From IMG/VR virus record IMGVR_UViG_3300028800_000074, positions 1 to 64,000 of that record: DNA of 64,000 nucleotides, one strand, 5' to 3'. Under the pieces are notes generated by a model. That model was not told where the DNA came from, ran no database searches, and saw nothing but the letters and a program-made list of their open reading frames with translations. Below are positions 18,050 to 30,214 of this stretch, one piece after another. A program made the position numbers and the translations under genes. Numbering within the stretch: the first letter of the stretch is position 1; every line of letters begins with the position of its first letter. Origin of the DNA: a virus.

Positions 18050-19585
18050 ATGGCCCTCGCCGCTCCGGTCATGTCTGACGAGGCGGTTTACGACCTGCTC
18101 CGCCGCCACGCCCCCGCGTCCGTGGTTGGCTACCTAACCTCCACCGCTCGTGAGCAGGAGGAAGAGGGCAACGCAAGGCTCGCGGAACAGTTTCGTCGTC
18201 AATGTGCGACGATGATCGGTTTCACAGAGTATCGCTATGCGCGATACGTCACAGCGCCGCATCACAAGCTCGTCTCTGAACAGCTTGAGCGCGTCGAGCG
18301 TCGAGAGATCGACCGGCTCATCATCGAGATGCCTCCCCGACATGGGAAGTCGGAGCTGGCCTCGAAGAGCTACCCGTCATGGTGCTTGGGCCGCAACCCG
18401 ACGAAACAGATCATCTCCGCCTCGGCCGCGAACGATCTGGCGCAGGACTGGGGCAAGTGGGTCCGCAACATTGTCGCCAGTGACGAGTTCAGATTGGTCT
18501 ACCCCGGCGTCGAGCTTGCCGAGGACAGCCGGGCCGCAGGAAAGTGGCAGACAAAGCAGGGCGGCATCTATGTCGCCGCGTCGGTTGGCACCGCGATCTT
18601 GGGCCGTGGCGCAGACGAGTATCTAATCGACGACGCGTTCGGGAGCATGCAGGACGCCCGCAGCGAGACGATCCGAAACTCGGTGTGGGAGTGGTACAAC
18701 GGCACCGTCTACAATCGGCTCCAGCCGGGCGGAGCAATCATCATCATCGGCCACCGCATGCACGAGGACGATCTCGCCGGGCGGCTCATTGAGCGCATGA
18801 AGGCTGGAGACGGCGCGGATCAGTGGACGATCATCCGGCTCCCCGCCGTCGCGGAAGCGCCGACGAAGGAATATCCCGAGCCCGACCCTCTGGGCCGCAA
18901 GCCCGGCGAGGCGCTCTGGCCAGCCTCCTATCCGATCAAGGCGCTCGAACGCATCCGAGCGAACACGCAGCCGCCGCGCAACTGGTTCGCGCTCTATCAG
19001 CAGCGGCCGACGCCTGACGAGGGCGCGATGTTCATGCCGGACAAGATCACGATCCGGAAGAACTCGAACACGTCCGACGTGGTGGTCTGGGTCCGAGCGT
19101 GGGACTTGGCGGCGAGCGTGGATGGGGACTGGACGGTCGGCGTGCAGATGGGGCGCACCAGTAGCGGGAAGATCGTCATCGGGCACGTGCGACGCCTCAG
19201 GGGCCGCCCAGAGGCGGTTTCAGAGGCCATTGCAGCTCAGGCCCGGCTTGACACGATCAGGGTCAAGATTGCGCTTCCGATTGACCCCGGTCAGGCCGGG
19301 CTCGCGCAGAAGTCCGCCTTCGTCAAACTGCTCAACGGCTTCCGGGTCGACTTCAGCCCGGAGAGCGGCGACAAGGAGACGAGGGCCGAACCGTTCGCGG
19401 TGCAGGTCAACAACGATAACGTCGAGATGATGGAAGGCGACTGGAACGCCGCCTACGTCGAAGAGCTTCGCAGCTTTCCCGACGGGAAGTACAAGGATCA
19501 GGTCGACGCATCGAGCCGGGCACACATGGTGCTCATGGCGTCGGGCATGCCGATCAGGATCAACCCGGCGCTGCTGGAGCGCTGA
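18050..19585 (+). CDS. terL: terminase large subunit
   Basis: MPPRHGKS Walker A, LIDD Walker B, YQQRP, RAWDLA, FPDGKYKDQVDA nuclease. Confidence 0.97.
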   Translation: MALAAPVMSDEAVYDLLRRHAPASVVGYLTSTAREQEEEGNARLAEQFRRQCATMIGFTEYRYARYVTAPHHKLVSEQLERVERREIDRLIIEMPPRHGKSELASKSYPSWCLGRNPTKQIISASAANDLAQDWGKWVRNIVASDEFRLVYPGVELAEDSRAAGKWQTKQGGIYVAASVGTAILGRGADEYLIDDAFGSMQDARSETIRNSVWEWYNGTVYNRLQPGGAIIIIGHRMHEDDLAGRLIERMKAGDGADQWTIIRLPAVAEAPTKEYPEPDPLGRKPGEALWPASYPIKALERIRANTQPPRNWFALYQQRPTPDEGAMFMPDKITIRKNSNTSDVVVWVRAWDLAASVDGDWTVGVQMGRTSSGKIVIGHVRRLRGRPEAVSEAIAAQARLDTIRVKIALPIDPGQAGLAQKSAFVKLLNGFRVDFSPESGDKETRAEPFAVQVNNDNVEMMEGDWNAAYVEELRSFPDGKYKDQVDASSRAHMVLMASGMPIRINPALLER

Positions 19586-20388: not shown

Positions 20389-22530
20389 ATGAAGGCCAGT
20401 CAGCTTCTTGCCGCTGCGTCCCTCCTCCTCGCCATTGGCGCGGAGACGCCAGCCTTCTCATATCCAGCAGGCTACGGCCCTCCAGCTTTGCCGTCAGCCT
20501 CGTTGCCGATCAGGCCGGAGTGCCTTCAGCCGCCGACGAGCTTCACCAACGTCTGGCACTTCGACGCGGTGAACGGCAAGCCGCCGAACTACCTTCAGGT
20601 CGCGGGCGCTTACGGCCCGATCATCATGTCGCCGACGACTGTCCCTACCGGGCAGACCATGAAGGCCTATATCGCCACATGGAACGGCTCAGCTTGGACG
20701 CAGGTGCTGACCACGTTCACCGCTGGTCAGGTCATCCCGGTCAGCGGCAACGGCTCTCTGGCCGCGCCTTGGAACGACGTGTCGGCCGTCATGTGGGCGA
20801 GCGCGAACGCCAAGGCTGGATACAGGTGGCCGCTGCTCGCGACCGTCCCGAGCTACCAGTACGTGGTCGGCAAGGGCTATGTCTATGCCAACGGCGGCGT
20901 GAACGGCGGCGTCCAGCAGTCGGGCCCGATCCTGCCCGGGGACGAGATTTTACTCGCGACCGGGAACTATGGCGCGGTCAGCTTCAATCTTCCGACCATC
21001 GAGGTCGTCAACAGCGGCTTCGTGACGATGGCCGCCGAGCCGGGGCAATCGCCCGTGATCGCGTCGCTTGTCCTCGCCGACACCAACAAGTGGCATTTCG
21101 ACGGGATCAAGTTTCAGTCGATGGCGGGCGTCCTTGCCAGCGTGAACGACGGCGGCGGCGCGGCTGACCAGTTCGGCAACCCGCTGGTCACCAGCGACAT
21201 CATCTTCACTGCAACTGACTTCTCCAACGTCGACGACTTGGTCGCGAACGGGTGGACGCAGGTCCAGTGGCGCAGCGCAACGAGCGGCTTCCAGTCGCAG
21301 GGGAGCAACGACGGCGCGAATACGAGATGCGTCTCGGTCCTCGCCAGCCATGCCCACAATCTGCATGAGGGCATCACGATCAATTCGAACTACTCGGTCG
21401 CGTCCTATGACGAGATCAACCGGTTCACTGACAACGCCCTGAGCCACGATGGCTCGTATCAGATTTTCGACGTCAACTTCACGCATGACCCGGTCGACGT
21501 TGGGCTCGCGTACCACGTTGACGGCTCGCAGCAGGAGGGCTTCGCGCTTCTCCCCGGGCAGACGTGGATCACCTACACCGACATCGAGAAGAACAACGGC
21601 CTCTTCATCGATCATTACGATCCGACGAGCCCGTTCGCCACGATCTGCATGACGGGGATGGATGACTACTCCGGCGTCGGCTACGTCATCGTCAAAAATC
21701 TGCGCATCCAAAACAATGTTCATATCTCGTGCGGGACTGGTGAACTCTACGAGCTGAACATCCAAGACTCGATCATCTCGAACAACACGGTTGTCCCAAC
21801 GAACCCGGCGCAGAACCCCCTCCCGGGTATCTCGCTGACGCTGACGAACAATTCAAACAGCCGGGTTTGCAACAACATCGCGCCGAACATCGTCGTCGCC
21901 AACAATCAGCCCGGCGTCACGTTCGACAACAACGTCGCCGTTCAGTATGCGGCCTATATCCAGAACGCCGACGGCTCATGGCCCGCGAGCGCGAGCTTCC
22001 TTCAGGCCTATGGCTGGTGGGACACGACCGGCCACTACAGCGCGACGCAGACGGCCGCCGCCAACAACCAGACGATGTCGATTGCGTCGTTCATGGCGCT
22101 CTTCAATCAGGCTCCGACCGGCGTCCCTCCGACCTATGACGTCTCGCTCAAGCCGGGCGCAACGACCAACGGGTCGGCGAGCTGCGGTCCGCAGACGAAC
22201 ACGGCCGGGCAGCTTCGCGCCTACTGGGTGAACTACACTGCGGCCGAGACGGCGGCGATGGCGCAGGACGCGATCTCGGCTGGAGACCTTACTGCGGCCA
22301 ATGTGGCGACGCAGACGGCGAACGCGTCGGCCTCGACGGCGGCGACGGACGATCAGGCCACGGCTGCGGCCAAGGCGATCTCGGACGCTGCCGACGCTCA
22401 GGCGGCGACGGACGCTCAGACGGCGGCTCAGGCAGTCACCACGTCGAACGCGGCTCAGGCTCAGGCCGCCACGCTTGACAACGCGGCGGCTGCGGCCGGT
22501 GCCGCGCCTATGGCCCCCGGCGCATACTGA
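20389..22530 (+). CDS. signal-peptide right-handed beta-helix (pectin-lyase fold) protein
   Basis: N-terminal signal peptide ending PAFS; PGDEILLATGNYG cap; Asn-rich IQNN/ISNNT/VCNNI/FDNNV repeats; Ala-rich tail. Confidence 0.75.
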   Translation: MKASQLLAAASLLLAIGAETPAFSYPAGYGPPALPSASLPIRPECLQPPTSFTNVWHFDAVNGKPPNYLQVAGAYGPIIMSPTTVPTGQTMKAYIATWNGSAWTQVLTTFTAGQVIPVSGNGSLAAPWNDVSAVMWASANAKAGYRWPLLATVPSYQYVVGKGYVYANGGVNGGVQQSGPILPGDEILLATGNYGAVSFNLPTIEVVNSGFVTMAAEPGQSPVIASLVLADTNKWHFDGIKFQSMAGVLASVNDGGGAADQFGNPLVTSDIIFTATDFSNVDDLVANGWTQVQWRSATSGFQSQGSNDGANTRCVSVLASHAHNLHEGITINSNYSVASYDEINRFTDNALSHDGSYQIFDVNFTHDPVDVGLAYHVDGSQQEGFALLPGQTWITYTDIEKNNGLFIDHYDPTSPFATICMTGMDDYSGVGYVIVKNLRIQNNVHISCGTGELYELNIQDSIISNNTVVPTNPAQNPLPGISLTLTNNSNSRVCNNIAPNIVVANNQPGVTFDNNVAVQYAAYIQNADGSWPASASFLQAYGWWDTTGHYSATQTAAANNQTMSIASFMALFNQAPTGVPPTYDVSLKPGATTNGSASCGPQTNTAGQLRAYWVNYTAAETAAMAQDAISAGDLTAANVATQTANASASTAATDDQATAAAKAISDAADAQAATDAQTAAQAVTTSNAAQAQAATLDNAAAAAGAAPMAPGAY

Positions 22531-22541
22531 CCATCTGATCG

Positions 22542-25500
22542 ATGGCAGCGCGTAAGCGGCCGACCTCATCCCCCCGGGTGAGGCCCGGCATCCATATCTC
22601 GGCGGCCCTCCAGTCCCGTATCCTGCGGGCCAAGGACGGTCCGAGCTACGACCCGTTCAAGCCCTACGTTCACGATCAGGCGCTGCACCCGCCCGGCGTA
22701 ACGATGGCGATGGACGACGCCTACAACTCCTTCAGCCCGACGGCTGGGTGGTCGGTCCGCAGCCTCGGCAGCGCTATCGCCGAGGGGCAGGTCTTCCTCG
22801 GCTACCCGACCTTGGCCGCGTTGCTTCAACGCGTCGAGTACATGAACGCGGTCATGTCCTACGCCGACGACATGACGCGGAAGTGGATCGAGTTCAAGGC
22901 GAGCGCCGGGACCGACAAGCAAGAGCGCATCGACGCGATTACAGACAAGTGGGACGCGCTTCAGGTGCAGGCGCGGATGAAGGATCATATCGCGCAGGCT
23001 CTCGGCTTCGGACGGGCGCACGTCTATCTCGACACGGGCGACACCGATAATCCGGACGAGCTGAAGAAGGACATTGGCGACGGCGCTCGGTCTGCCGCCA
23101 CGGCGTTCAAACTCCCGGGCAAGAAGGTGCTCGGGCTCAGGACGATTGAGCCGGTCTGGGTCAGCCCGCACGACTACGAGACCTCGAACCCGCTCAAGCC
23201 GAACTGGTACAAGCCCAACGCTTGGCACGTCATGGCGCGCGAGGTTCATGCGAGCCGTCTTCTGACGACCATCCCGTTCCCGGTCTCCGACTTGCTCAAG
23301 CCCGCCTACTCGTTCGGCGGCATCCCGCTCATCCAGATGGGCAAGCCATACGTCGACAACTGGCTGAACGTCAGACAGTCGACGACCGACATCGCCGAGG
23401 CCTACTCGATCTTCGTGCTTGCGACGAAGTTGCAGGACACGATGGCTGGCGGCAACGGAGACCAAGAAGTCCTCAACCGCGTGGCGCTCTTCAATCGATA
23501 CCGCTCTAACAAGGGCACGATGGTCATCGACAAGGAGACCGAGGACTTCAAGAACATCTCGGCCAATGTGTCCGGCATCGAGGCGATCCAAGCCGCGTCG
23601 CAGGAGCATATGAGCGCCGCATGGCGCATCCCGCTGGTCAAGCTCACCGGCATCTCGCCGTCCGGGCTCAATGCATCGAGCGAGGGCGAGATCAGGGTCT
23701 ATTACGACCTGATCCGGAGCATGCAGGAAGGCCTCATCCGCCCCCTGCTCCAGATCGTCCTCGACTTCACGAGCATCGAGCTGTTCGGCGACGTCGATCC
23801 GGATATCACGTTCGACTTCGTCAAGCTCTTCGAGGTCACCGAGGTTGAGGCGGCCCAGATCAGGTCGGCCGATGCGCAGACCGGCACGGCGCTCATCCAG
23901 TCCGGCGTGATCTCGACCGAGGAAGAGCGGGCCCGCGTCTCCAACGACCCGGACAGCCCGTACATCGACCTCAAGGACACGCCGATCCCAGTCATGCCGG
24001 GCCCAGCCCCGGGTGAAGAGGGCTACGTCGGCGATCCGGATAACTGGCAGACCGCCCTCGAAGGGATCAACAAGCTCGGCGGCCTCCTGCCAGCGCCGGA
24101 GCCCGAGCAGCGCGCCTCACCCGGCGCATGGGAAGGGGTGCTCAAGGGCGTTCTCGCCAACGGTGGGCTTGAGAACCCGGACAACGACGGCATCGTGGCC
24201 TCCCCCGAGGCATGGAAGGCCGTGGGGGCGGGTTTGTCCGCTTCCGGGGGTCTCAGCACCCCAGACGGCTCCGAGGCCGTCCAGCAGCCTCTTGAGCCCG
24301 CCATAAGGCAGGTGTTCGGCAAGGACGCGCTCGAAGACGAGCCGCGCAAGGGTGCCGGGCAGGCTGGCGGTGGCGAATGGACGGCTCAGAGCGGCGGCGG
24401 CGCTCAGAAGTCCGCGCCCGGGAAAAATGGCATTATTGCCGGTAATAATCCGGCCAAGCGTCCCCACGTCGCGCACTATGATCCGAAGGCGACGCAGGTC
24501 GACGCACAGGGCGTGGTTCACACCACGTCGGTCGTCGACGCCGCCCGGGCGCTCTATGACGGCAAGAAGGTCGACCTCAATCAGCCGAGAGAGGTCGCAA
24601 CACTCGTCGACCATCTGGGCCAAGTCGCGAAGCATATGATCGCGATGGGCGATGCTGCGCCGAACTTCAACCTGTGCAACGTCAGCGTCGACAACACGAA
24701 CATCTTCTGTGCGGTGAGCGAGGGCATCCCTCGCATCGACATGCCGCAGCTCCCGCCGAACCTGCACCCGTTCTTGTCGTTCCTCGGCGAGAAGGGTCTC
24801 GGCTTCCAGCCCGCGATGGAAAAGGCTGGCTACCTCAGGGCGACGCAGAACGAGCTGATCGGCGCTAAGGTCGCGGCTATCGCCAAGGCGTTGCAGAACA
24901 TCGATCCGCGCAAGCTCGACCCGCTCGTGGTCAGCAAGGACAACTATATCGTCGACGGTCACCATCGCTGGTCGGCGGAAGTGGCGATCTCGGCTGAGCA
25001 AGGCAACTTCGACCGGCCGCTCGAAATCTATCGCGTCAACAGCGACATCTTGCCGCTGCTCAAGCTCGCCAACGACTTCACGGGCGGCAAGGGACATGTC
25101 GCCGGATCGCTCAAGCCGGGCGAGGCTGCGCTGAACCTGAAGACCGAGAACCATTTCCTTGATGGGGAGACCCACGCGCACGACGGCCGCCCTTTTGGCC
25201 TTGACGAGGCTCGACCGAATCAGGCCATGGATGACTTCAGCCCGTCAGAACCGCGCAAGGGCGTGGGACAGGCTGGTGCAGGGGAGTGGACGGCGGAGGG
25301 TGGGGCTGCGGCTCCTTTTGGCAAAGGCAAGCAATCCGAGCCTTCCGCCGCTTCTCTAAGCGACAAGATCGTCTCAACCCGGAACGTGACAGCCAAGTCC
25401 ACCAAGGGCGAGGCCGAGGGCAAGTACCTCCGCATCGACACCGATGCGATGAAGGCTGACCCTGAGCTGTTCAAGCACAACGTCGGCCTCTTCAAGCGCG

Positions 25501-26627
25501 GCGACCTCTACCCCGGTATGAAGCCCGACGAACTGAAGGGCTCCGAGCAAGAGGTCGCCAAGGCCGTCATCGAGCGCATGCGCGACAACCTCGACTTCCT
25601 CGTCGGGATGGTGCCGAAGGACAAGATCAAGGCGTGGGCGCACTGGTATGAGGGGGCGCACAAATTCGCAGAGGACTTCGGCAAGAAGTATGGCGTCGAC
25701 ACGGCGAGCGCGGCAGGCGTGATCGCGGCCCTCTCGCCGCAGAGGCCGTGGGACGAGAACGTCTACTTCGCGGATCGCGTGATGGACATCATGAAGAACC
25801 ATCCCCACGACAAGTGGGACGACGCGATGAAGTCGACCGGCGAGAGGATTTGGACGAGCGCCAAGAACGCGCCGATCCTGAAGGCCATCGAAGGCAAGCG
25901 CCTCGACGAACTTGACGACCCAGTCGCTCAGGCGGCGTGGATCAGGACGTGGAACGAGGCGCACGAAGACCGCAAGTTCGAGATCGCGAAGCCGGACGGC
26001 ACGTTCGGCGGCAAGATGAAGACGGCGGCCGGAGGCTATGACACCGCGTCATGGGGATCGCTTGCGCAGACCGTGAACGCGATCCACGCTTTCCAGAGCG
26101 GCGGCGACCCGAAGAAGCTCTCCGCAATCTTGGGTGAGAGACACAAGGTTCGCAGCTTCTACAACAACATCATCGCCCCTGATGATCCTAACGGCGACGT
26201 GACGGTCGATACGCATGCTGTTGGAGCGGCGTGGTTGCAGCCGACCTCGGGGACTTCCGCTTCGGTCTGGCACAACCTAGCTAACAATCCGGGCGCAGAG
26301 GGCAAGGACCCGTTCCGGCCGAAGAACTGGGTAGCAGCCAAGGGCTCGGCGAAGCTCGGCGTGAGAGGCACGTATCCGCTCTATGCCGACGCCTATCGAG
26401 AGGCGGCGAAGGATTTGGGGCTCAAGCCCCGCGAGGTTCAGTCGGTCGCGTGGGAGATGAAGCAGCGCCTGTTCAGCGACAAGCTGACCGGCGAGAGGGT
26501 TCAGAAGGCCGTCAACGAGGTCTGGGAAGACTACCGTGACGGCAAGCTCTCGCTGAAGGATGCGCGAGAGAAGGTAGTCTCGGTCGCGACGGCTATGCGC
26601 CCCGACCACAAGATCGACTTCAACTGA
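22542..26627 (+). CDS. DUF1073 portal protein fused to long cargo extension (ParB-like and DUF7178-like domains)
   Basis: FLGYPTLAAL, VHASRLL, IPLVKLTGISPSGLNASSEGEIRVYYD portal motifs in the first ~480 aa; later LRATQ..IVDGHHRW and WY..IAALSPQ..KVRSFYNNI..VTVDTHA..EVQSVAW. Confidence 0.9.
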   Translation: MAARKRPTSSPRVRPGIHISAALQSRILRAKDGPSYDPFKPYVHDQALHPPGVTMAMDDAYNSFSPTAGWSVRSLGSAIAEGQVFLGYPTLAALLQRVEYMNAVMSYADDMTRKWIEFKASAGTDKQERIDAITDKWDALQVQARMKDHIAQALGFGRAHVYLDTGDTDNPDELKKDIGDGARSAATAFKLPGKKVLGLRTIEPVWVSPHDYETSNPLKPNWYKPNAWHVMAREVHASRLLTTIPFPVSDLLKPAYSFGGIPLIQMGKPYVDNWLNVRQSTTDIAEAYSIFVLATKLQDTMAGGNGDQEVLNRVALFNRYRSNKGTMVIDKETEDFKNISANVSGIEAIQAASQEHMSAAWRIPLVKLTGISPSGLNASSEGEIRVYYDLIRSMQEGLIRPLLQIVLDFTSIELFGDVDPDITFDFVKLFEVTEVEAAQIRSADAQTGTALIQSGVISTEEERARVSNDPDSPYIDLKDTPIPVMPGPAPGEEGYVGDPDNWQTALEGINKLGGLLPAPEPEQRASPGAWEGVLKGVLANGGLENPDNDGIVASPEAWKAVGAGLSASGGLSTPDGSEAVQQPLEPAIRQVFGKDALEDEPRKGAGQAGGGEWTAQSGGGAQKSAPGKNGIIAGNNPAKRPHVAHYDPKATQVDAQGVVHTTSVVDAARALYDGKKVDLNQPREVATLVDHLGQVAKHMIAMGDAAPNFNLCNVSVDNTNIFCAVSEGIPRIDMPQLPPNLHPFLSFLGEKGLGFQPAMEKAGYLRATQNELIGAKVAAIAKALQNIDPRKLDPLVVSKDNYIVDGHHRWSAEVAISAEQGNFDRPLEIYRVNSDILPLLKLANDFTGGKGHVAGSLKPGEAALNLKTENHFLDGETHAHDGRPFGLDEARPNQAMDDFSPSEPRKGVGQAGAGEWTAEGGAAAPFGKGKQSEPSAASLSDKIVSTRNVTAKSTKGEAEGKYLRIDTDAMKADPELFKHNVGLFKRGDLYPGMKPDELKGSEQEVAKAVIERMRDNLDFLVGMVPKDKIKAWAHWYEGAHKFAEDFGKKYGVDTASAAGVIAALSPQRPWDENVYFADRVMDIMKNHPHDKWDDAMKSTGERIWTSAKNAPILKAIEGKRLDELDDPVAQAAWIRTWNEAHEDRKFEIAKPDGTFGGKMKTAAGGYDTASWGSLAQTVNAIHAFQSGGDPKKLSAILGERHKVRSFYNNIIAPDDPNGDVTVDTHAVGAAWLQPTSGTSASVWHNLANNPGAEGKDPFRPKNWVAAKGSAKLGVRGTYPLYADAYREAAKDLGLKPREVQSVAWEMKQRLFSDKLTGERVQKAVNEVWEDYRDGKLSLKDAREKVVSVATAMRPDHKIDFN

Positions 26628-26649
26628 ACCTCGGGAGTTTTCGTGCGAC

Positions 26650-27096
26650 ATGACCACAGAGGATGCGAAGGCGGGTCTTAATCTGGTGATGGCCTACGCC
26701 GGTAGGTGGGCGCTGGGCGTCATTGCCTCGGCGCTTGTCTCAATAGGGCTTTACGCCGTCCACCAGAACAACGACATCACGGGCCTCCTGTCGTCGCACA
26801 CGCAAAACTTCGTGAGCATGCAGCGCGAGATCGACGAGATTAAGGGCGACATCGCCAACCACAACAAGCAGATCGACGATACGCAGAGGCAGATCAAGTC
26901 GGACCTGAGCGAGGCGCAGAAAGAGTCGCAGACGCAACTGGAGCGTCGGCAGGACGAGATCATGAGCGCGGTGCATGACGTAACGCGCGCCGTAATCGCC
27001 GCGCACTCCGACCTGATGTCTCTTCGGGCTGGTCTTTTGAACGCGAAGCCGGGTATTGTCATCCCGTTCGAAGATTCGAGCCGGGCCGAGAAATGA
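26650..27096 (+). CDS. single-TM coiled-coil protein
   Basis: WALGVIASALVSIGLYAV TM segment then heptad-rich region; possible lysis accessory. Confidence 0.65.
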   Translation: MTTEDAKAGLNLVMAYAGRWALGVIASALVSIGLYAVHQNNDITGLLSSHTQNFVSMQREIDEIKGDIANHNKQIDDTQRQIKSDLSEAQKESQTQLERRQDEIMSAVHDVTRAVIAAHSDLMSLRAGLLNAKPGIVIPFEDSSRAEK

Positions 27097-27440
27097 GATC
27101 GCAACTGATCATCGTGTTCACGGTCGCCTCTCTGGGCCAATCGGCCTCAGCGCACGCTGGCGACTGGACCGCGCAGGTCGTCGAGCGAACGCAAGGCGGG
27201 CCAGCGGCGGTCTGTAACGGTGAGCAGAGGATCGTCGTCACGAAGAAGCGTGACGGCACCTTCGTCATCGACGGGCCGACCTGCCTTGTTCCAAGAGCGC
27301 CTGCAAATAGCTGGGCTCCTCCGCCTCCGAGGCCGCCGAGCAAGACGGTCCCTCGAAGGGTCTACCACGAGCGCTATGAGCGGCCTCACCACAAGGGTCG
27401 CGCAGGGCTGTTCGACTTCCTGTTCGGTAAGCACCAATGA
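27093..27440 (+). CDS. secreted Pro-rich hypothetical protein
   Basis: Signal peptide ending ASAHA; Cys pair. Confidence 0.6.
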   Translation: MRSQLIIVFTVASLGQSASAHAGDWTAQVVERTQGGPAAVCNGEQRIVVTKKRDGTFVIDGPTCLVPRAPANSWAPPPPRPPSKTVPRRVYHERYERPHHKGRAGLFDFLFGKHQ

Positions 27441-29107
27441 ACACGCCCGGCTCCATCGCCGTCCTCAAGTTCATGACGGAGAACGACATCCCGCTCACCC
27501 GGGAGAACTTCGTCAACACGAACTGGGGCGGCAACCCGCCTCGCCCGTGGGACGCCGAGGCCGAAGAAGAGATACCACTGGAGCTGGCCGAGTTCGGCGA
27601 GCCGGAAGAGAACCGCGAGCTTCTGGAAGACCGTGGCGACCTCGCTGGCGACGACTGGGCCGTGATGGCATCCGGCAAGATCGTCGAAGTCCCCGCTGGC
27701 ACCAAGGCTGGCGACACAGCCCCGGACATCTGGGCCAAGGACGCCTTCGACCCGCAGGAGCCGCGCAAGGACGACGGCGAGTGGACGTCGGGAGGCGGGG
27801 GCGGCGGAGCGAAGGCTGAGAAGGAGCCGGTCGTCGACGTGCCCGCATATGAGTGGGCGAAGCGTCAGATCGACAAGCACACGAAGAACAGCAAGCTGCG
27901 CGCCAAGCAGCACGAGTGGATGGCGCGGCACAAGCAGAACGTCGACGCCTTCTTCAAGAAGAGCGACATCAAGGTCGCGCTCGACAAGGTCGCCAAGGAT
28001 GCGACATCGACCACGTCGTTCACCGTCGGCGCGGCGCTCAATAAGGGCGCGGACGTCGTCTCTGATGCGCTTCAGGACGCCTTGATCGCGGTGGCGGTCG
28101 GAGCTGGCGTCGCAGCCTTCGGCGTCGGAGGTTGGCAGGTCGCAGGATCGGCGGCGCTCGCTTACGCGGTCGAAGAGCTTGGCGACTGGCTCGGGCTCAC
28201 GCCGGAGAACGCGGTCAAGCTCATCAAGGCCGGAGTGCAGGAGATCGGGAAGGCGCTGAAGAAGCGCCCCCAGAAGGACGAGAACGACGACGGGATGTTC
28301 AGCCTTCTGTCGGCTCTCCCGTGGGATCACCCGGTCGACCCGAAGACGAACCCGTTCATCGAAGGCGAAGAGTTCGTGTCTCCGAACGTCAAGACTGGTC
28401 TCGATCTTCAGGACGCGATCAAGGAGACGACGTCGCCGCGCCACAAGACGATGATCAAGGCGGCGCGCGACATCAACAAGCTCATCGGCTTCGAGAGCGA
28501 AGAACACTCAGCGATTGGCGCTTGGCTCGACGGCGCAGAGAACAGCGTGATGTCTGTCACGCACGGCGCGACCATGGCTCAGCTCAGGACGGCGGCGGCG
28601 ATGGAGGGGGCGCTTGCAAACCAGCGCTCGGTGATGATCGTCAACGAGAACGTCGGCGGCAAGGGGCTGCTCTATCACTTCGACGTCAAGGGCGACGTTC
28701 AGTCGATCCACGACGGCTTGCTGGCGAGCGGCGTCGAGTTCCACACCATCGTTCCTTCCGCCGACGGCAAGTTCACGGTATATGTCGCCTCGGCTGATTC
28801 GTCACAACGAGAGTTCAAGGCGGTTCAGAAGGCGGCGGAGCGCTTCAATGCCAAAGTCGAGTACCACAGGGTCGACGCCGAACTCGTCGGATCGGACAAA
28901 GAAGACGGCACCGACGCCGAGCAGCGAGAAGACGCCCAGTCCCGTTACGGATCAATCATTGAAGGCGGCGGGGTTCAAGGAGCCAAAGCCATCTGGGGCC
29001 GGGTTTATTCTCGGTACAAGGCCGCCTTCGAAGACAGAGCCGTAAAGAAGCCTCGTGAAGAGAGGCCGCCGTGGCGGACGCAACAGGCTGAGGGGGCGAG
29101 AGCGTGA
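27437..29107 (+). CDS. multidomain head-associated (putative cargo) protein
   Basis: 556-aa ORF with AKDAFDPQEPRKDDGEWT tag, a hydrophobic central segment and a GAW..GAENS...NQRSV domain. Confidence 0.75.
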   Translation: MNTPGSIAVLKFMTENDIPLTRENFVNTNWGGNPPRPWDAEAEEEIPLELAEFGEPEENRELLEDRGDLAGDDWAVMASGKIVEVPAGTKAGDTAPDIWAKDAFDPQEPRKDDGEWTSGGGGGGAKAEKEPVVDVPAYEWAKRQIDKHTKNSKLRAKQHEWMARHKQNVDAFFKKSDIKVALDKVAKDATSTTSFTVGAALNKGADVVSDALQDALIAVAVGAGVAAFGVGGWQVAGSAALAYAVEELGDWLGLTPENAVKLIKAGVQEIGKALKKRPQKDENDDGMFSLLSALPWDHPVDPKTNPFIEGEEFVSPNVKTGLDLQDAIKETTSPRHKTMIKAARDINKLIGFESEEHSAIGAWLDGAENSVMSVTHGATMAQLRTAAAMEGALANQRSVMIVNENVGGKGLLYHFDVKGDVQSIHDGLLASGVEFHTIVPSADGKFTVYVASADSSQREFKAVQKAAERFNAKVEYHRVDAELVGSDKEDGTDAEQREDAQSRYGSIIEGGGVQGAKAIWGRVYSRYKAAFEDRAVKKPREERPPWRTQQAEGARA

Positions 29108-29313
29108 CGCTCGAAGAAGAGCTTTTCAAAAGAGCGCAGCTTGAGGCTGAGGCGGATCGCATCCTCAGCATCGGCATCGCGCATAATCGAAAGGTGCAGC
29201 GAAACGCCAAGCGCCTTAAGCACTGGACTGGGGGCCGCCTCACCACGGCCGAGATCAATCAGATGACGGCTGAGATGAGGGCGAGGGCTGGTGACGGCAA
29301 GGTTCTCGGGTAA
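29104..29313 (+). CDS. hypothetical protein
   Basis: GTGA-coupled 69-aa ORF. Confidence 0.55.
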   Translation: MTLEEELFKRAQLEAEADRILSIGIAHNRKVQRNAKRLKHWTGGRLTTAEINQMTAEMRARAGDGKVLG

Positions 29314-30214
29314 GTGGTGCGGGCAGCCTTACGGCAAGCCCAGCGTGCTGCTCACCCTTCCAAACCTCATGGGTCTCGACGCCAAGGCGTCAGGGAAGCC
29401 CGCTGGCGGCCGTCGGCCGTCCGTCGCGGTAGGCAGGCCCCTGCATCCGAACCTCGGTCTGGCGGCCTCCTATGGGGCGCGGCTGACCTCTCTGATCGAC
29501 GAGATGCACCGGAGCGTTATCTATTGGCTCAAGGCCGAGTATCGAGCTAACCCACCAGCGACCATGGCGTTCGACGATCTCGCATCGAAGACACTGGCCG
29601 AGACGATGAAGGGTTTGGCGAAGCGGTGGCTAGGACGCTTCGATGAAATGGCGGAGAGGCTGGCCCGTTATTTCGCCCAGTCCGTATCCAAGCGGACCGA
29701 CGACGCGCTCAGGAAGATTTTGAGCGACGGCGGCATGGCGCTCAGGGACTGGAAGACGACCGCCGCCCAGAAGGATGCGCTCGCGGCCATCGTCCACGAG
29801 AACGTGTCGCTGATCAAATCGATCCCGCGCGAGTATCTCGGCAAGGTCGAGCGCGACGTGATGCGGTCGGTCGCGGCCGGTCGAGACCTGAAGCAGCTCG
29901 AAGACGATCTTCAGGCACACTTCGGGGTGACCCGAGACAGGGCTAGGCTGATCGCGGTCGACCAGAACAACAAGGCGACGGCGATGCTGCGCCGCGTCCG
30001 CGCCGTCGAGGCGGGCACGTTCACATGGGAGTGGATGCACTCCAGCGCAGGCAAGACGCCGCGCCCGACGCATCTCGCGGCCGGACGTCGTGGCCAGCGG
30101 TTCGACATCCGAGAGGGATGGTTCGATCCGCATGAGGGCCGCAAGGTTCAGCCGGGCGAATTGATCCGGTGCCGATGTACTTGCCGACCGGTTTTCCCCG
30201 GCCTACCGTCCTGA
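29291..30214 (+). CDS. MuF / SPP1 gp7-like head morphogenesis protein
   Basis: ENVSLIKSIP, RARLIAVDQNNKA, WMHS...PRPTH, PGELIRCRC; true start may be downstream. Confidence 0.92.
   Translation: MTARFSGKWCGQPYGKPSVLLTLPNLMGLDAKASGKPAGGRRPSVAVGRPLHPNLGLAASYGARLTSLIDEMHRSVIYWLKAEYRANPPATMAFDDLASKTLAETMKGLAKRWLGRFDEMAERLARYFAQSVSKRTDDALRKILSDGGMALRDWKTTAAQKDALAAIVHENVSLIKSIPREYLGKVERDVMRSVAAGRDLKQLEDDLQAHFGVTRDRARLIAVDQNNKATAMLRRVRAVEAGTFTWEWMHSSAGKTPRPTHLAAGRRGQRFDIREGWFDPHEGRKVQPGELIRCRCTCRPVFPGLPS

Follow-up and report, generated by a model that had tools for sequence, protein, structure and literature searches.

Phage polyvalent proteins carry effector domains fused to portal and MuF proteins, ParB-superfamily domains among them (Iyer, Burroughs, Anand, de Souza and Aravind 2017, PMC5512222), and for effectors fused in this way packaging followed by injection has been proposed (PMC5512222, PMC9503650). 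Here we analyze a portal-cargo gene of an uncultured soil phage, found in IMG/VR virus record IMGVR_UViG_3300028800_000074 (79 kb, CheckV 91% complete), positions 1 to 64,000 of which make up the window, i.e., the whole 64,000-nucleotide stretch of DNA that was analyzed. It is well supported that the portal of this phage is a single 1361-residue protein, the last ~870 residues of which comprise two enzyme-like modules: M1, which is ParB/sulfiredoxin (Srx)-like, and M2, a DUF7178 module resembling the helix-hairpin-helix (HhH)-GPD glycosylases. We consider it somewhat probable that this protein is a capsid-loading "polyvalent" portal, the cargo of which would be held in the head, freed by a protease, leave with the DNA and act early.

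The protein shares with described polyvalent proteins the presence of unrelated enzyme-type domains in one chain, a location among the head genes, a portal anchor and a ParB-superfamily member, and its domains shuffle between proteins just as polyvalent domains do (PMC5512222). It carries at least two unrelated effector-type domains, is fused to the portal within the head genes, and its domains recombine freely in relatives; packaging of the protein in the virion and its delivery with the DNA are suggested by context, namely the T7-type internal-virion slot and the annotation of H66 gp60 (see below). It departs from the class in that no MPTase self-processing domain was detected, a short junction motif bounding the modules instead, and in that neither DUF7178 nor a glycosylase-type domain is mentioned in PMC5512222. 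The P1 Dar proteins (DarB, DdrB) and T4 Alt/IPI, which counter defence or modify the host, are likewise enzymes built into the capsid and delivered with DNA, as proposed here, and P1 DdrB possesses a ParB-superfamily domain and is proteolytically processed (PMC5512222). These, however, are separate, head-recruited products with other enzymatic domains, whereas the cargo described here is a covalent extension of the portal.

The original prediction overrated the novelty of the portal-effector fusion, the principle of which has been known since 2017 (PMC5512222, PMC9503650) and such fusions are common among the relatives of this portal. What is new is the glycosylase-like reading of DUF7178 and the junction motif at the module borders. 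In print we came across no description of DUF7178, the motif or the M1 family itself, and the whole portal-M1-M2 architecture was not found in any cultured phage record.

Reading frame and portal domain

The open reading frame (ORF) of the gene runs through 1361 codons without a stop, and its N-terminal part is a portal by three comparisons. Pfam family PF06381 (Phage_portal_3) matches residues 90-447 (7e-73, 245.8 bits against a cut-off of 33.8), taking in profile positions 3-354 of 357; PHROG 146 matches residues 50-492 (2.9e-94); and the solved gp19 portals of Pa193 and E217 align with residues 49-491 (1e-29). These alignments uphold the original prediction that the portal signal gives out, at about residue 490, while the frame runs on to residue 1361, and all the motifs that it quoted for the two modules were recovered in this same frame where it had placed them (Table 1).

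The closest solved portal, Pa193/E217 gp19 (PDB 9b41, 8fvh; PMC11456595, PMC10329688), comes from myoviruses that have in common with the present phage a head protease of the DUF2213-type family and a C-terminal portal extension. In the Pa193 portal, the 237 C-terminal residues that follow the C-terminal barrel (529-765) have no density in the map (PMC11456595). The extension considered here is far longer, at 870 residues, and our search brought out no resemblance between the gp19 extension and M1 or M2.

Because the gene comes from a single metagenomic contig, the fusion might be an artefact of mis-assembly or of a sequencing frameshift that joined the portal gene to a separate cargo gene. 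Logan contigs from four public rhizosphere runs, which are fragmented and of low depth and the best-covering run of which is possibly the source sample, contain 0 indels over 23700-25107, 25283-25727, 25838-26325 and 26522-26700. The read support called for by the original prediction is thus clean wherever these contigs reach, including the portal-linker-M1 junction (23700-25107), which is covered by contigs of several runs, while 25108-25282 and 26326-26521 lie outside their coverage. The portal, M1 and M2 resemble neighboring genes in their GC content at third codon positions (GC3), which lies at 0.85-0.88 in these three parts and at 0.66-0.77 in the two linkers, a pattern indicating that one frame is coding throughout. 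Together with the similar fusions found in independent phages (see below), this continuous coding signal makes an artefact very hard to credit. The sole substitution in the Logan contigs, T>G at 24972 (S811A), present in two runs, restores the M1 family consensus, which has Ala at that position in 94% of 163 sequences.

Folds of the two modules

M2 matches Pfam PF23802 (DUF7178) at 5.8e-25 (88.8-94.4 bits against a cut-off of 27) and, at ~410 residues, is twice as long as the Pfam model. An AlphaFold2 model of M2 built with an alignment of 30 stand-alone relatives (alignment A1) has a predicted local distance difference test score (pLDDT) of 92 and a predicted template modeling score of 0.91, and Foldseek ranks Pa-AGOG, an archaeal 8-oxoguanine glycosylase, first among its matches in the Protein Data Bank (PDB; prob 0.77). 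In a Foldseek-independent comparison (VIA), the top 22 rows consist of HhH-GPD enzymes or Qng1/DUF2419 proteins only (Z 8.9-4.1), and unrelated rows start at Z≤4.0. The list includes Tm Ogg (3n0u, Z 8.9, 189 residues aligned), human DUF2419 (7ugk, Z 8.7, 230 residues aligned) and 1xqp (Z 7.3), in addition to AGOG, EndoIII, MagIII, Mag1, MutY, OGG1, ROS1 and AlkA. For a helical protein these are modest Z values, and it is the exclusivity of the list that carries the fold argument; on this basis the modeled fold of M2 is that of the HhH-GPD enzymes, in agreement with the original prediction of a DUF7178/HhH-glycosylase-like domain.

The model shares with HhH-GPD glycosylases (Ogg/AGOG, endonuclease III, MutY, MagIII) and Qng1/DUF2419 a two-lobed all-helical fold. 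It also appears to have their helix-hairpin-helix with a subsequent loop and an invariant Asp, and the second helix opens with a Lys that is likewise invariant. Residues 1190-1231 are modeled as a helix, a hairpin, a helix, a loop and then an Asp capping the next helix, which resembles the HhH-GPD arrangement (in model numbering, helices 259-266 and 270-280, the loop, and D292 capping helix 293-300). M2 differs from these enzymes in length, with ~410 residues against ~210, and in having an extended N-terminus, an inserted beta-hairpin and additional helices at its C-terminus; moreover, it has no detectable sequence relationship to them or to Qng1, and its context is virion-internal. Across 263 unique M2 sequences of 30-70% identity, 13 residues are 100% conserved: W1035, Y1036, A1062, S1065, W1070, N1073, K1202, R1204, F1206, N1209, T1221, D1223 and H1225. 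K1202 lies at the start of the second helix of the helix-hairpin-helix, and an active site that includes K1202 and D1223 is likely. M2 may thus act as a base-flipping N-glycosidase on DNA or on a nucleotide.

M1 spans residues ~652-856 and belongs to no Pfam family; its own family comprises 2,727 clusters (50% identity) at E≤1e-3, mostly within proteins of 300-2,600 residues. The AlphaFold model has a pLDDT of 80 overall and 85-97 in the C-terminal half, and it is this half (residues 746-856) that bears out the ParB/Srx-like reading of the original prediction, with ParB/Srx structures alone at the top of both structure comparisons. Foldseek returns the ParB N-terminal domain of pNOB8, sulfiredoxin, Noc and ParB (5k5d, 3cyi, 7ol9, 6sdk; prob 0.97-1.00, E 3e-3 to 8e-2), and the top 8 VIA rows all belong to the ParB/Srx superfamily (Z 4.6-7.1); CTP-bound ParB, PadC, KorB and SbnI/serine kinase were also matched. 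For the N-terminal half (residues 652-745) there was no convincing fold match, the VIA rows being mutually unrelated at Z≤4.2. The only further leads are PHROG 1033 (3e-4 over 39 residues) and an Atlas lead to ParBc_2. Since M1 has a ParB/Srx fold and matches no ParB model, we place it with the ParB/Srx enzymes at the level of fold, as a separate unnamed family. It also differs in this respect from the DdrB-like ParB of polyvalent proteins (PMC5512222), the model of which (PF18763) it leaves unmatched. A nucleotide-binding or -hydrolyzing, DNA-nicking or DNA-binding activity would be compatible with such a fold.

Nine residues are invariant in 163 unique M1 sequences (C712, C723, R731, P735, Q769, Y802, G806, H807 and H808). 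The Cys residues C712 and C723 (24675-24710) and the adjacent His residues H807 and H808 (24960-24965) hint, from the sequence, at a possible metal-binding or redox site, which would be atypical of ParB proteins. Other candidate identities for M1 were discarded: a lincosamide nucleotidyltransferase was a chance match (phmmer against PDB sequences, E=1), and HAMP and DUF1015 reached Pfam E values of only 0.07-0.2.

Several results weigh against reading the modules as active enzymes of these families. For helical proteins, VIA Z values below ~13, such as those of M2, can reflect a common arrangement of helices. M2 gave no match at E≤10 to PF00730 (HhH-GPD), PF22175 (Ogg-HhH) or PF09171 (AGOG), a profile search of PDB sequences with alignment A1 was empty, and the Atlas named clusters provided weak leads only (0.75-0.77, with AGOG and Ogg-HhH on 10-17% of members). 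Aligning A1 to E. coli Nth with hhalign pairs K1202 and D1223 with K120 and D138 at a non-significant probability below 1%, and aligning it to Nth, MutY and AlkA together, again below 1%, pairs a different segment; as these non-significant runs disagree, residue equivalence with Nth is not claimed as shown. For M1, neither ParB_N (PF02195) nor the DdrB-like ParB model was matched at E≤10 in an hmmscan of the module or in six-frame searches of the genome, and the Arg by which the ParB/Srx GxxR motif is recognized, which is R809 here (D-G-H-H-R809), is Arg in only 57% of the 163 family sequences (His 24%, Thr 12%). Given that no ParB, DdrB-like ParB, HhH-GPD, Ogg-HhH or AGOG sequence model matches, the suffix "-like" is essential for both modules.

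The unmatched models of active families and the variable ParB Arg are also what would be expected if the extension were mostly passive, either inherited baggage or internal "stuffing" that serves head pressure or as a scaffold, with folds that are no longer active. We regard this as improbable, as the 13 invariant residues of M2 and the nine of M1 have been retained across 263 and 163 sequences, respectively, the GC3 and codon signal resembles that of essential genes, and the modules have repeatedly been re-acquired in new contexts.

Modules, linkers and junction motif across genomes

When compared with relatives by BLASTP, the extension falls into two mobile units. M1 and M2 co-occur, in either order, in ten proteins among the relatives gathered. 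Elsewhere they are joined to ADP-ribosyltransferase (ART), ART-PolyVal, Nudix, Zeta toxin, ATLF peptidase and DUF2213 protease domains, to HK97 protease-capsid fusions, to a Mu-type portal and to peptidoglycan hydrolases. Further portals contain M2 (P0100, P0456, P0441, P0011 and P0004) or M1 (P0239 and P0426), and these are the independent fusions that argue against an assembly artefact. The comparison of portal lengths that the original prediction had suggested shows long cargo-bearing portals to be common: more than 550 relatives of the present portal (40-50% identical) are 748-2,382 residues long, with ART, Nudix, topoisomerase IB, Zeta, DdrB-ParB, GNAT and histidine phosphatase domains as cargo, and also inteins. 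NCBI gives two portal relatives from Xanthobacter (P0396 and P0413, 1160-1221 residues) the name "anti-CBASS Acb1 family protein", possibly on account of a fused cargo domain of the Acb1/2H type.

DUF7178 is encoded in at least 538 IMG/VR contigs in a locus search with alignment A1; the same search with the single M2 sequence gave no matches. Among the best 80 IMG/VR loci, to which all locus counts refer, DUF7178 lies within a ~670-residue protein in 47, and in 35 of the 80 the neighbors of this protein include tail-tubular A/B, an internal virion protein resembling gp16, or both. Neighbors at these loci were identified by PHROG annotation of one podovirus contig (L065) propagated to the others, as phmmer with the window proteins was too insensitive for most loci. 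Such flanks define the ejection-protein slot of T7-like podoviruses, so that in many podovirus contigs the DUF7178 protein takes the position of the ejected core proteins gp14-gp16 of T7. No fold or sequence similarity was seen between the module and the T7 core proteins, and in the present phage it is carried on a myovirus portal. In Roseobacter phage CRP-738, DUF7178 is found between the portal and coat genes. A segment resembling M1 (28% identity, E 6e-6) is present in gp60 of Pseudomonas phage H66 (L006; NC_042342.1 47645-59008), a protein of ~3,800 residues with a PLxRFG domain for which the record annotates mass spectrometry verification. All of these contexts are virion-internal. Stand-alone DUF7178 genes also occur in Bradyrhizobium and other genomes.

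In the present protein, each module is preceded by a linker rich in Gly, Ala, Pro and Ser (46% and 45% of residues), and each linker holds a copy of the junction motif. In this phage the motif reads D-x-F-x-x-x-E-P-R-K-G-x-G-Q-A-G-x-G-E-W-T-A followed by glycines, and two further copies lie outside this gene, one in a 556-residue ORF (27758) and one in the opening part of the protease gene (35998). A general form, [FW]-D-P-x-[EH]-P-R-D-x-x-G-[RK]-[WF]-T-GGG, is found 141 times (unique copies) among 351 related proteins, 90 of which carry it, and it usually stands directly before a module. Linker 1 also shows, at ~24100-24260 (residues ~520-575), a loose internal repeat in translation, SPGAWEGVLKGVLANGGL / SPEAWKAVGAGLSASGGL.

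The head-gene block is ordered large terminase, 713-residue ORF, portal-cargo gene, MuF-like gene and DUF2213-type protease gene. The 556-residue ORF ends in a domain, M3, to which an internal module of P0004 and P0011, two of the M2-bearing portal fusions, is 41-43% identical (tblastn). In 9 of the 80 IMG/VR loci, M3 is joined to DUF7178 and lies immediately upstream of it; M3 looks like a third cargo cassette, unfused in this phage. The protease has its copy of the motif at residue ~20 and its DUF2213 domain at residues 226-394, with ~190 unassigned residues before and ~380 after, and in a related DUF2213 protein (P0040) the equivalent N-terminal position is occupied by M1.

Table 1 Features of the portal-cargo gene, its head-gene neighborhood and one DUF7178 locus elsewhere (window positions unless a contig is named)
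Feature	Position	Strand	Basis or content
Whole portal-cargo gene (P0001)	22542..26627	+	Single open frame, 1361 aa
Portal domain (Phage_portal_3), residues 50-492	22689..24017	+	Pfam, PHROG, Pa193/E217 alignments
Linker 1, residues 493-651	24018..24494	+	Gly/Ala/Pro/Ser 46%; no Pfam match
Junction motif copy 1	24315..24401, motif at 24339	+	FGKD-ALEDEPRKGAGQAGGGEWTA-GGG
M1 N-terminal subdomain, residues 652-745	24495..24776	+	Invariant C712, C723, R731, P735
M1 ParB/Srx-fold core, residues 746-856	24777..25109	+	Foldseek, VIA; invariant Q769, Y802, G806, H807, H808
M1 motifs of the original prediction	NLCNV 24669; GIPRIDMPQL 24723; LRATQ 24834; DGHHRW 24954	+	Same frame
Junction motif copy 2	25224..25298, motif at 25248	+	QAMD-DFSPSEPRKGVGQAGAGEWTA-GG
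M2 (DUF7178 module), residues 939-1355	25356..26606	+	Pfam PF23802, AlphaFold2 model, VIA, Foldseek
M2 motifs of the original prediction	WYEGA 25644; AAGVIAALSPQ 25710; KVRSFYNNI 26145; VTVDTHA 26199; EVQSVAW 26433	+	Same frame
Putative active-site segment of M2, H1201-K1202-x-R1204 ... T1221-x-D1223-T-H1225	26142..26216	+	Conservation, model secondary structure
Large terminase	18050-19585		
713-aa ORF between large terminase and portal	20389-22530	+	No Pfam or PHROG match
556-aa ORF with junction motif copy 3 (27758)	27437..29107	+	No Pfam or PHROG match
M3, C-terminal domain of 556-aa ORF	28328-29026	+	
MuF-like gene	29291-30214		
DUF2213-type head maturation protease, 818 aa	35941..38397	+	PHROG 2229; Pfam PF09979 4.7e-42
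DUF7178 protein in T7-like podovirus contig	L065:9395-11392		After tail-tubular A/B genes, before gp16-like internal virion protein

Proposed loading and release of the cargo

The C-terminus of solved portals points into the capsid lumen. With the portal oriented in this way, the extension would sit inside the head, and we propose that the N-terminal 490 residues form the dodecameric portal ring while the ~870 residues that follow would bring up to 12 copies of each enzyme-like module into a head, on flexible Gly/Ala/Pro linkers. We estimate the load that the extension would place inside the head at 12 x ~95 kDa, or ~1.1 MDa. Loading of up to 12 copies would be a consequence of how portals are built, and it accords with published work on polyvalent proteins.

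The cargo could leave with the DNA only once it had been cut free, and the DUF2213-type protease is the candidate processing enzyme, which would cut at or near the junction motifs and liberate the modules. Release at the junction by a protease that is itself tagged with the motif is plausible, though conjectural. The freed cargo would then pass out with the DNA and act early on host DNA or on nucleotide-based defence; an ejected nucleoside triphosphate-dependent ParB/Srx-type module and a glycosidase-type module could also protect the incoming genome. Two further points sit poorly with this mechanism. Twelve tethered 95-kDa tails, if unprocessed, might interfere with packaging, and among the 120 best long portal relatives just 2 have the strict motif, so that portal fusions do not in general carry it.

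The scarcity of the motif in other long portal relatives also means that processing need not be the rule, which lends support to the main rival explanation, in which no release of the cargo takes place. The two modules would in that case stay tethered to the portal crown and handle the phage's own DNA, positioning or holding the last-packaged (first-ejected) end, or protecting, repairing or modifying it, with the HhH and ParB parts serving mainly as DNA binders. HhH-GPD and ParB/Srx are indeed both DNA-handling folds, the fusion puts the modules beside the portal channel, and the Pa193 portal keeps its 237-residue C-terminal extension (PMC11456595). However, the same modules occur in non-portal proteins, including those in the T7-type internal-virion slot, the products of which are ejected, and in giant polyvalent proteins alongside ART, Nudix or Zeta effectors directed against host targets, and the strict conservation of the Lys and Asp suggests catalysis over mere binding. 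We therefore judge permanent tethering to be rather unlikely and retain a loaded and released cargo as the preferred reading.

A more specific version of the released-cargo reading can be offered only tentatively, and we hold it to be possible but doubtful as a whole. DUF7178 would represent a hitherto unnoticed branch of the HhH-GPD N-glycosidases with catalytic activity, which is carried in the virion, either fused to portals or proteases or in the ejection-protein slot, and injected against host DNA bases or nucleotide immune signals, and the junction motif would be a generic tag-and-cut signal by which the prohead protease loads and releases exchangeable cassettes.

The portal described here offers a clean example of how a phage may load enzymes into its head by extension of the portal, and it gives a testable reading to two large uncharacterized families, DUF7178 and the unnamed ParB/Srx-type M1 family. 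The junction motif provides a handle on the loading and release of capsid cargo. Should DUF7178 turn out to be a glycosidase delivered by injection, a new class of enzyme would join ARTs, 2H/Acb1 nucleases and Dar-type proteins among the tools that phages deploy early in infection.

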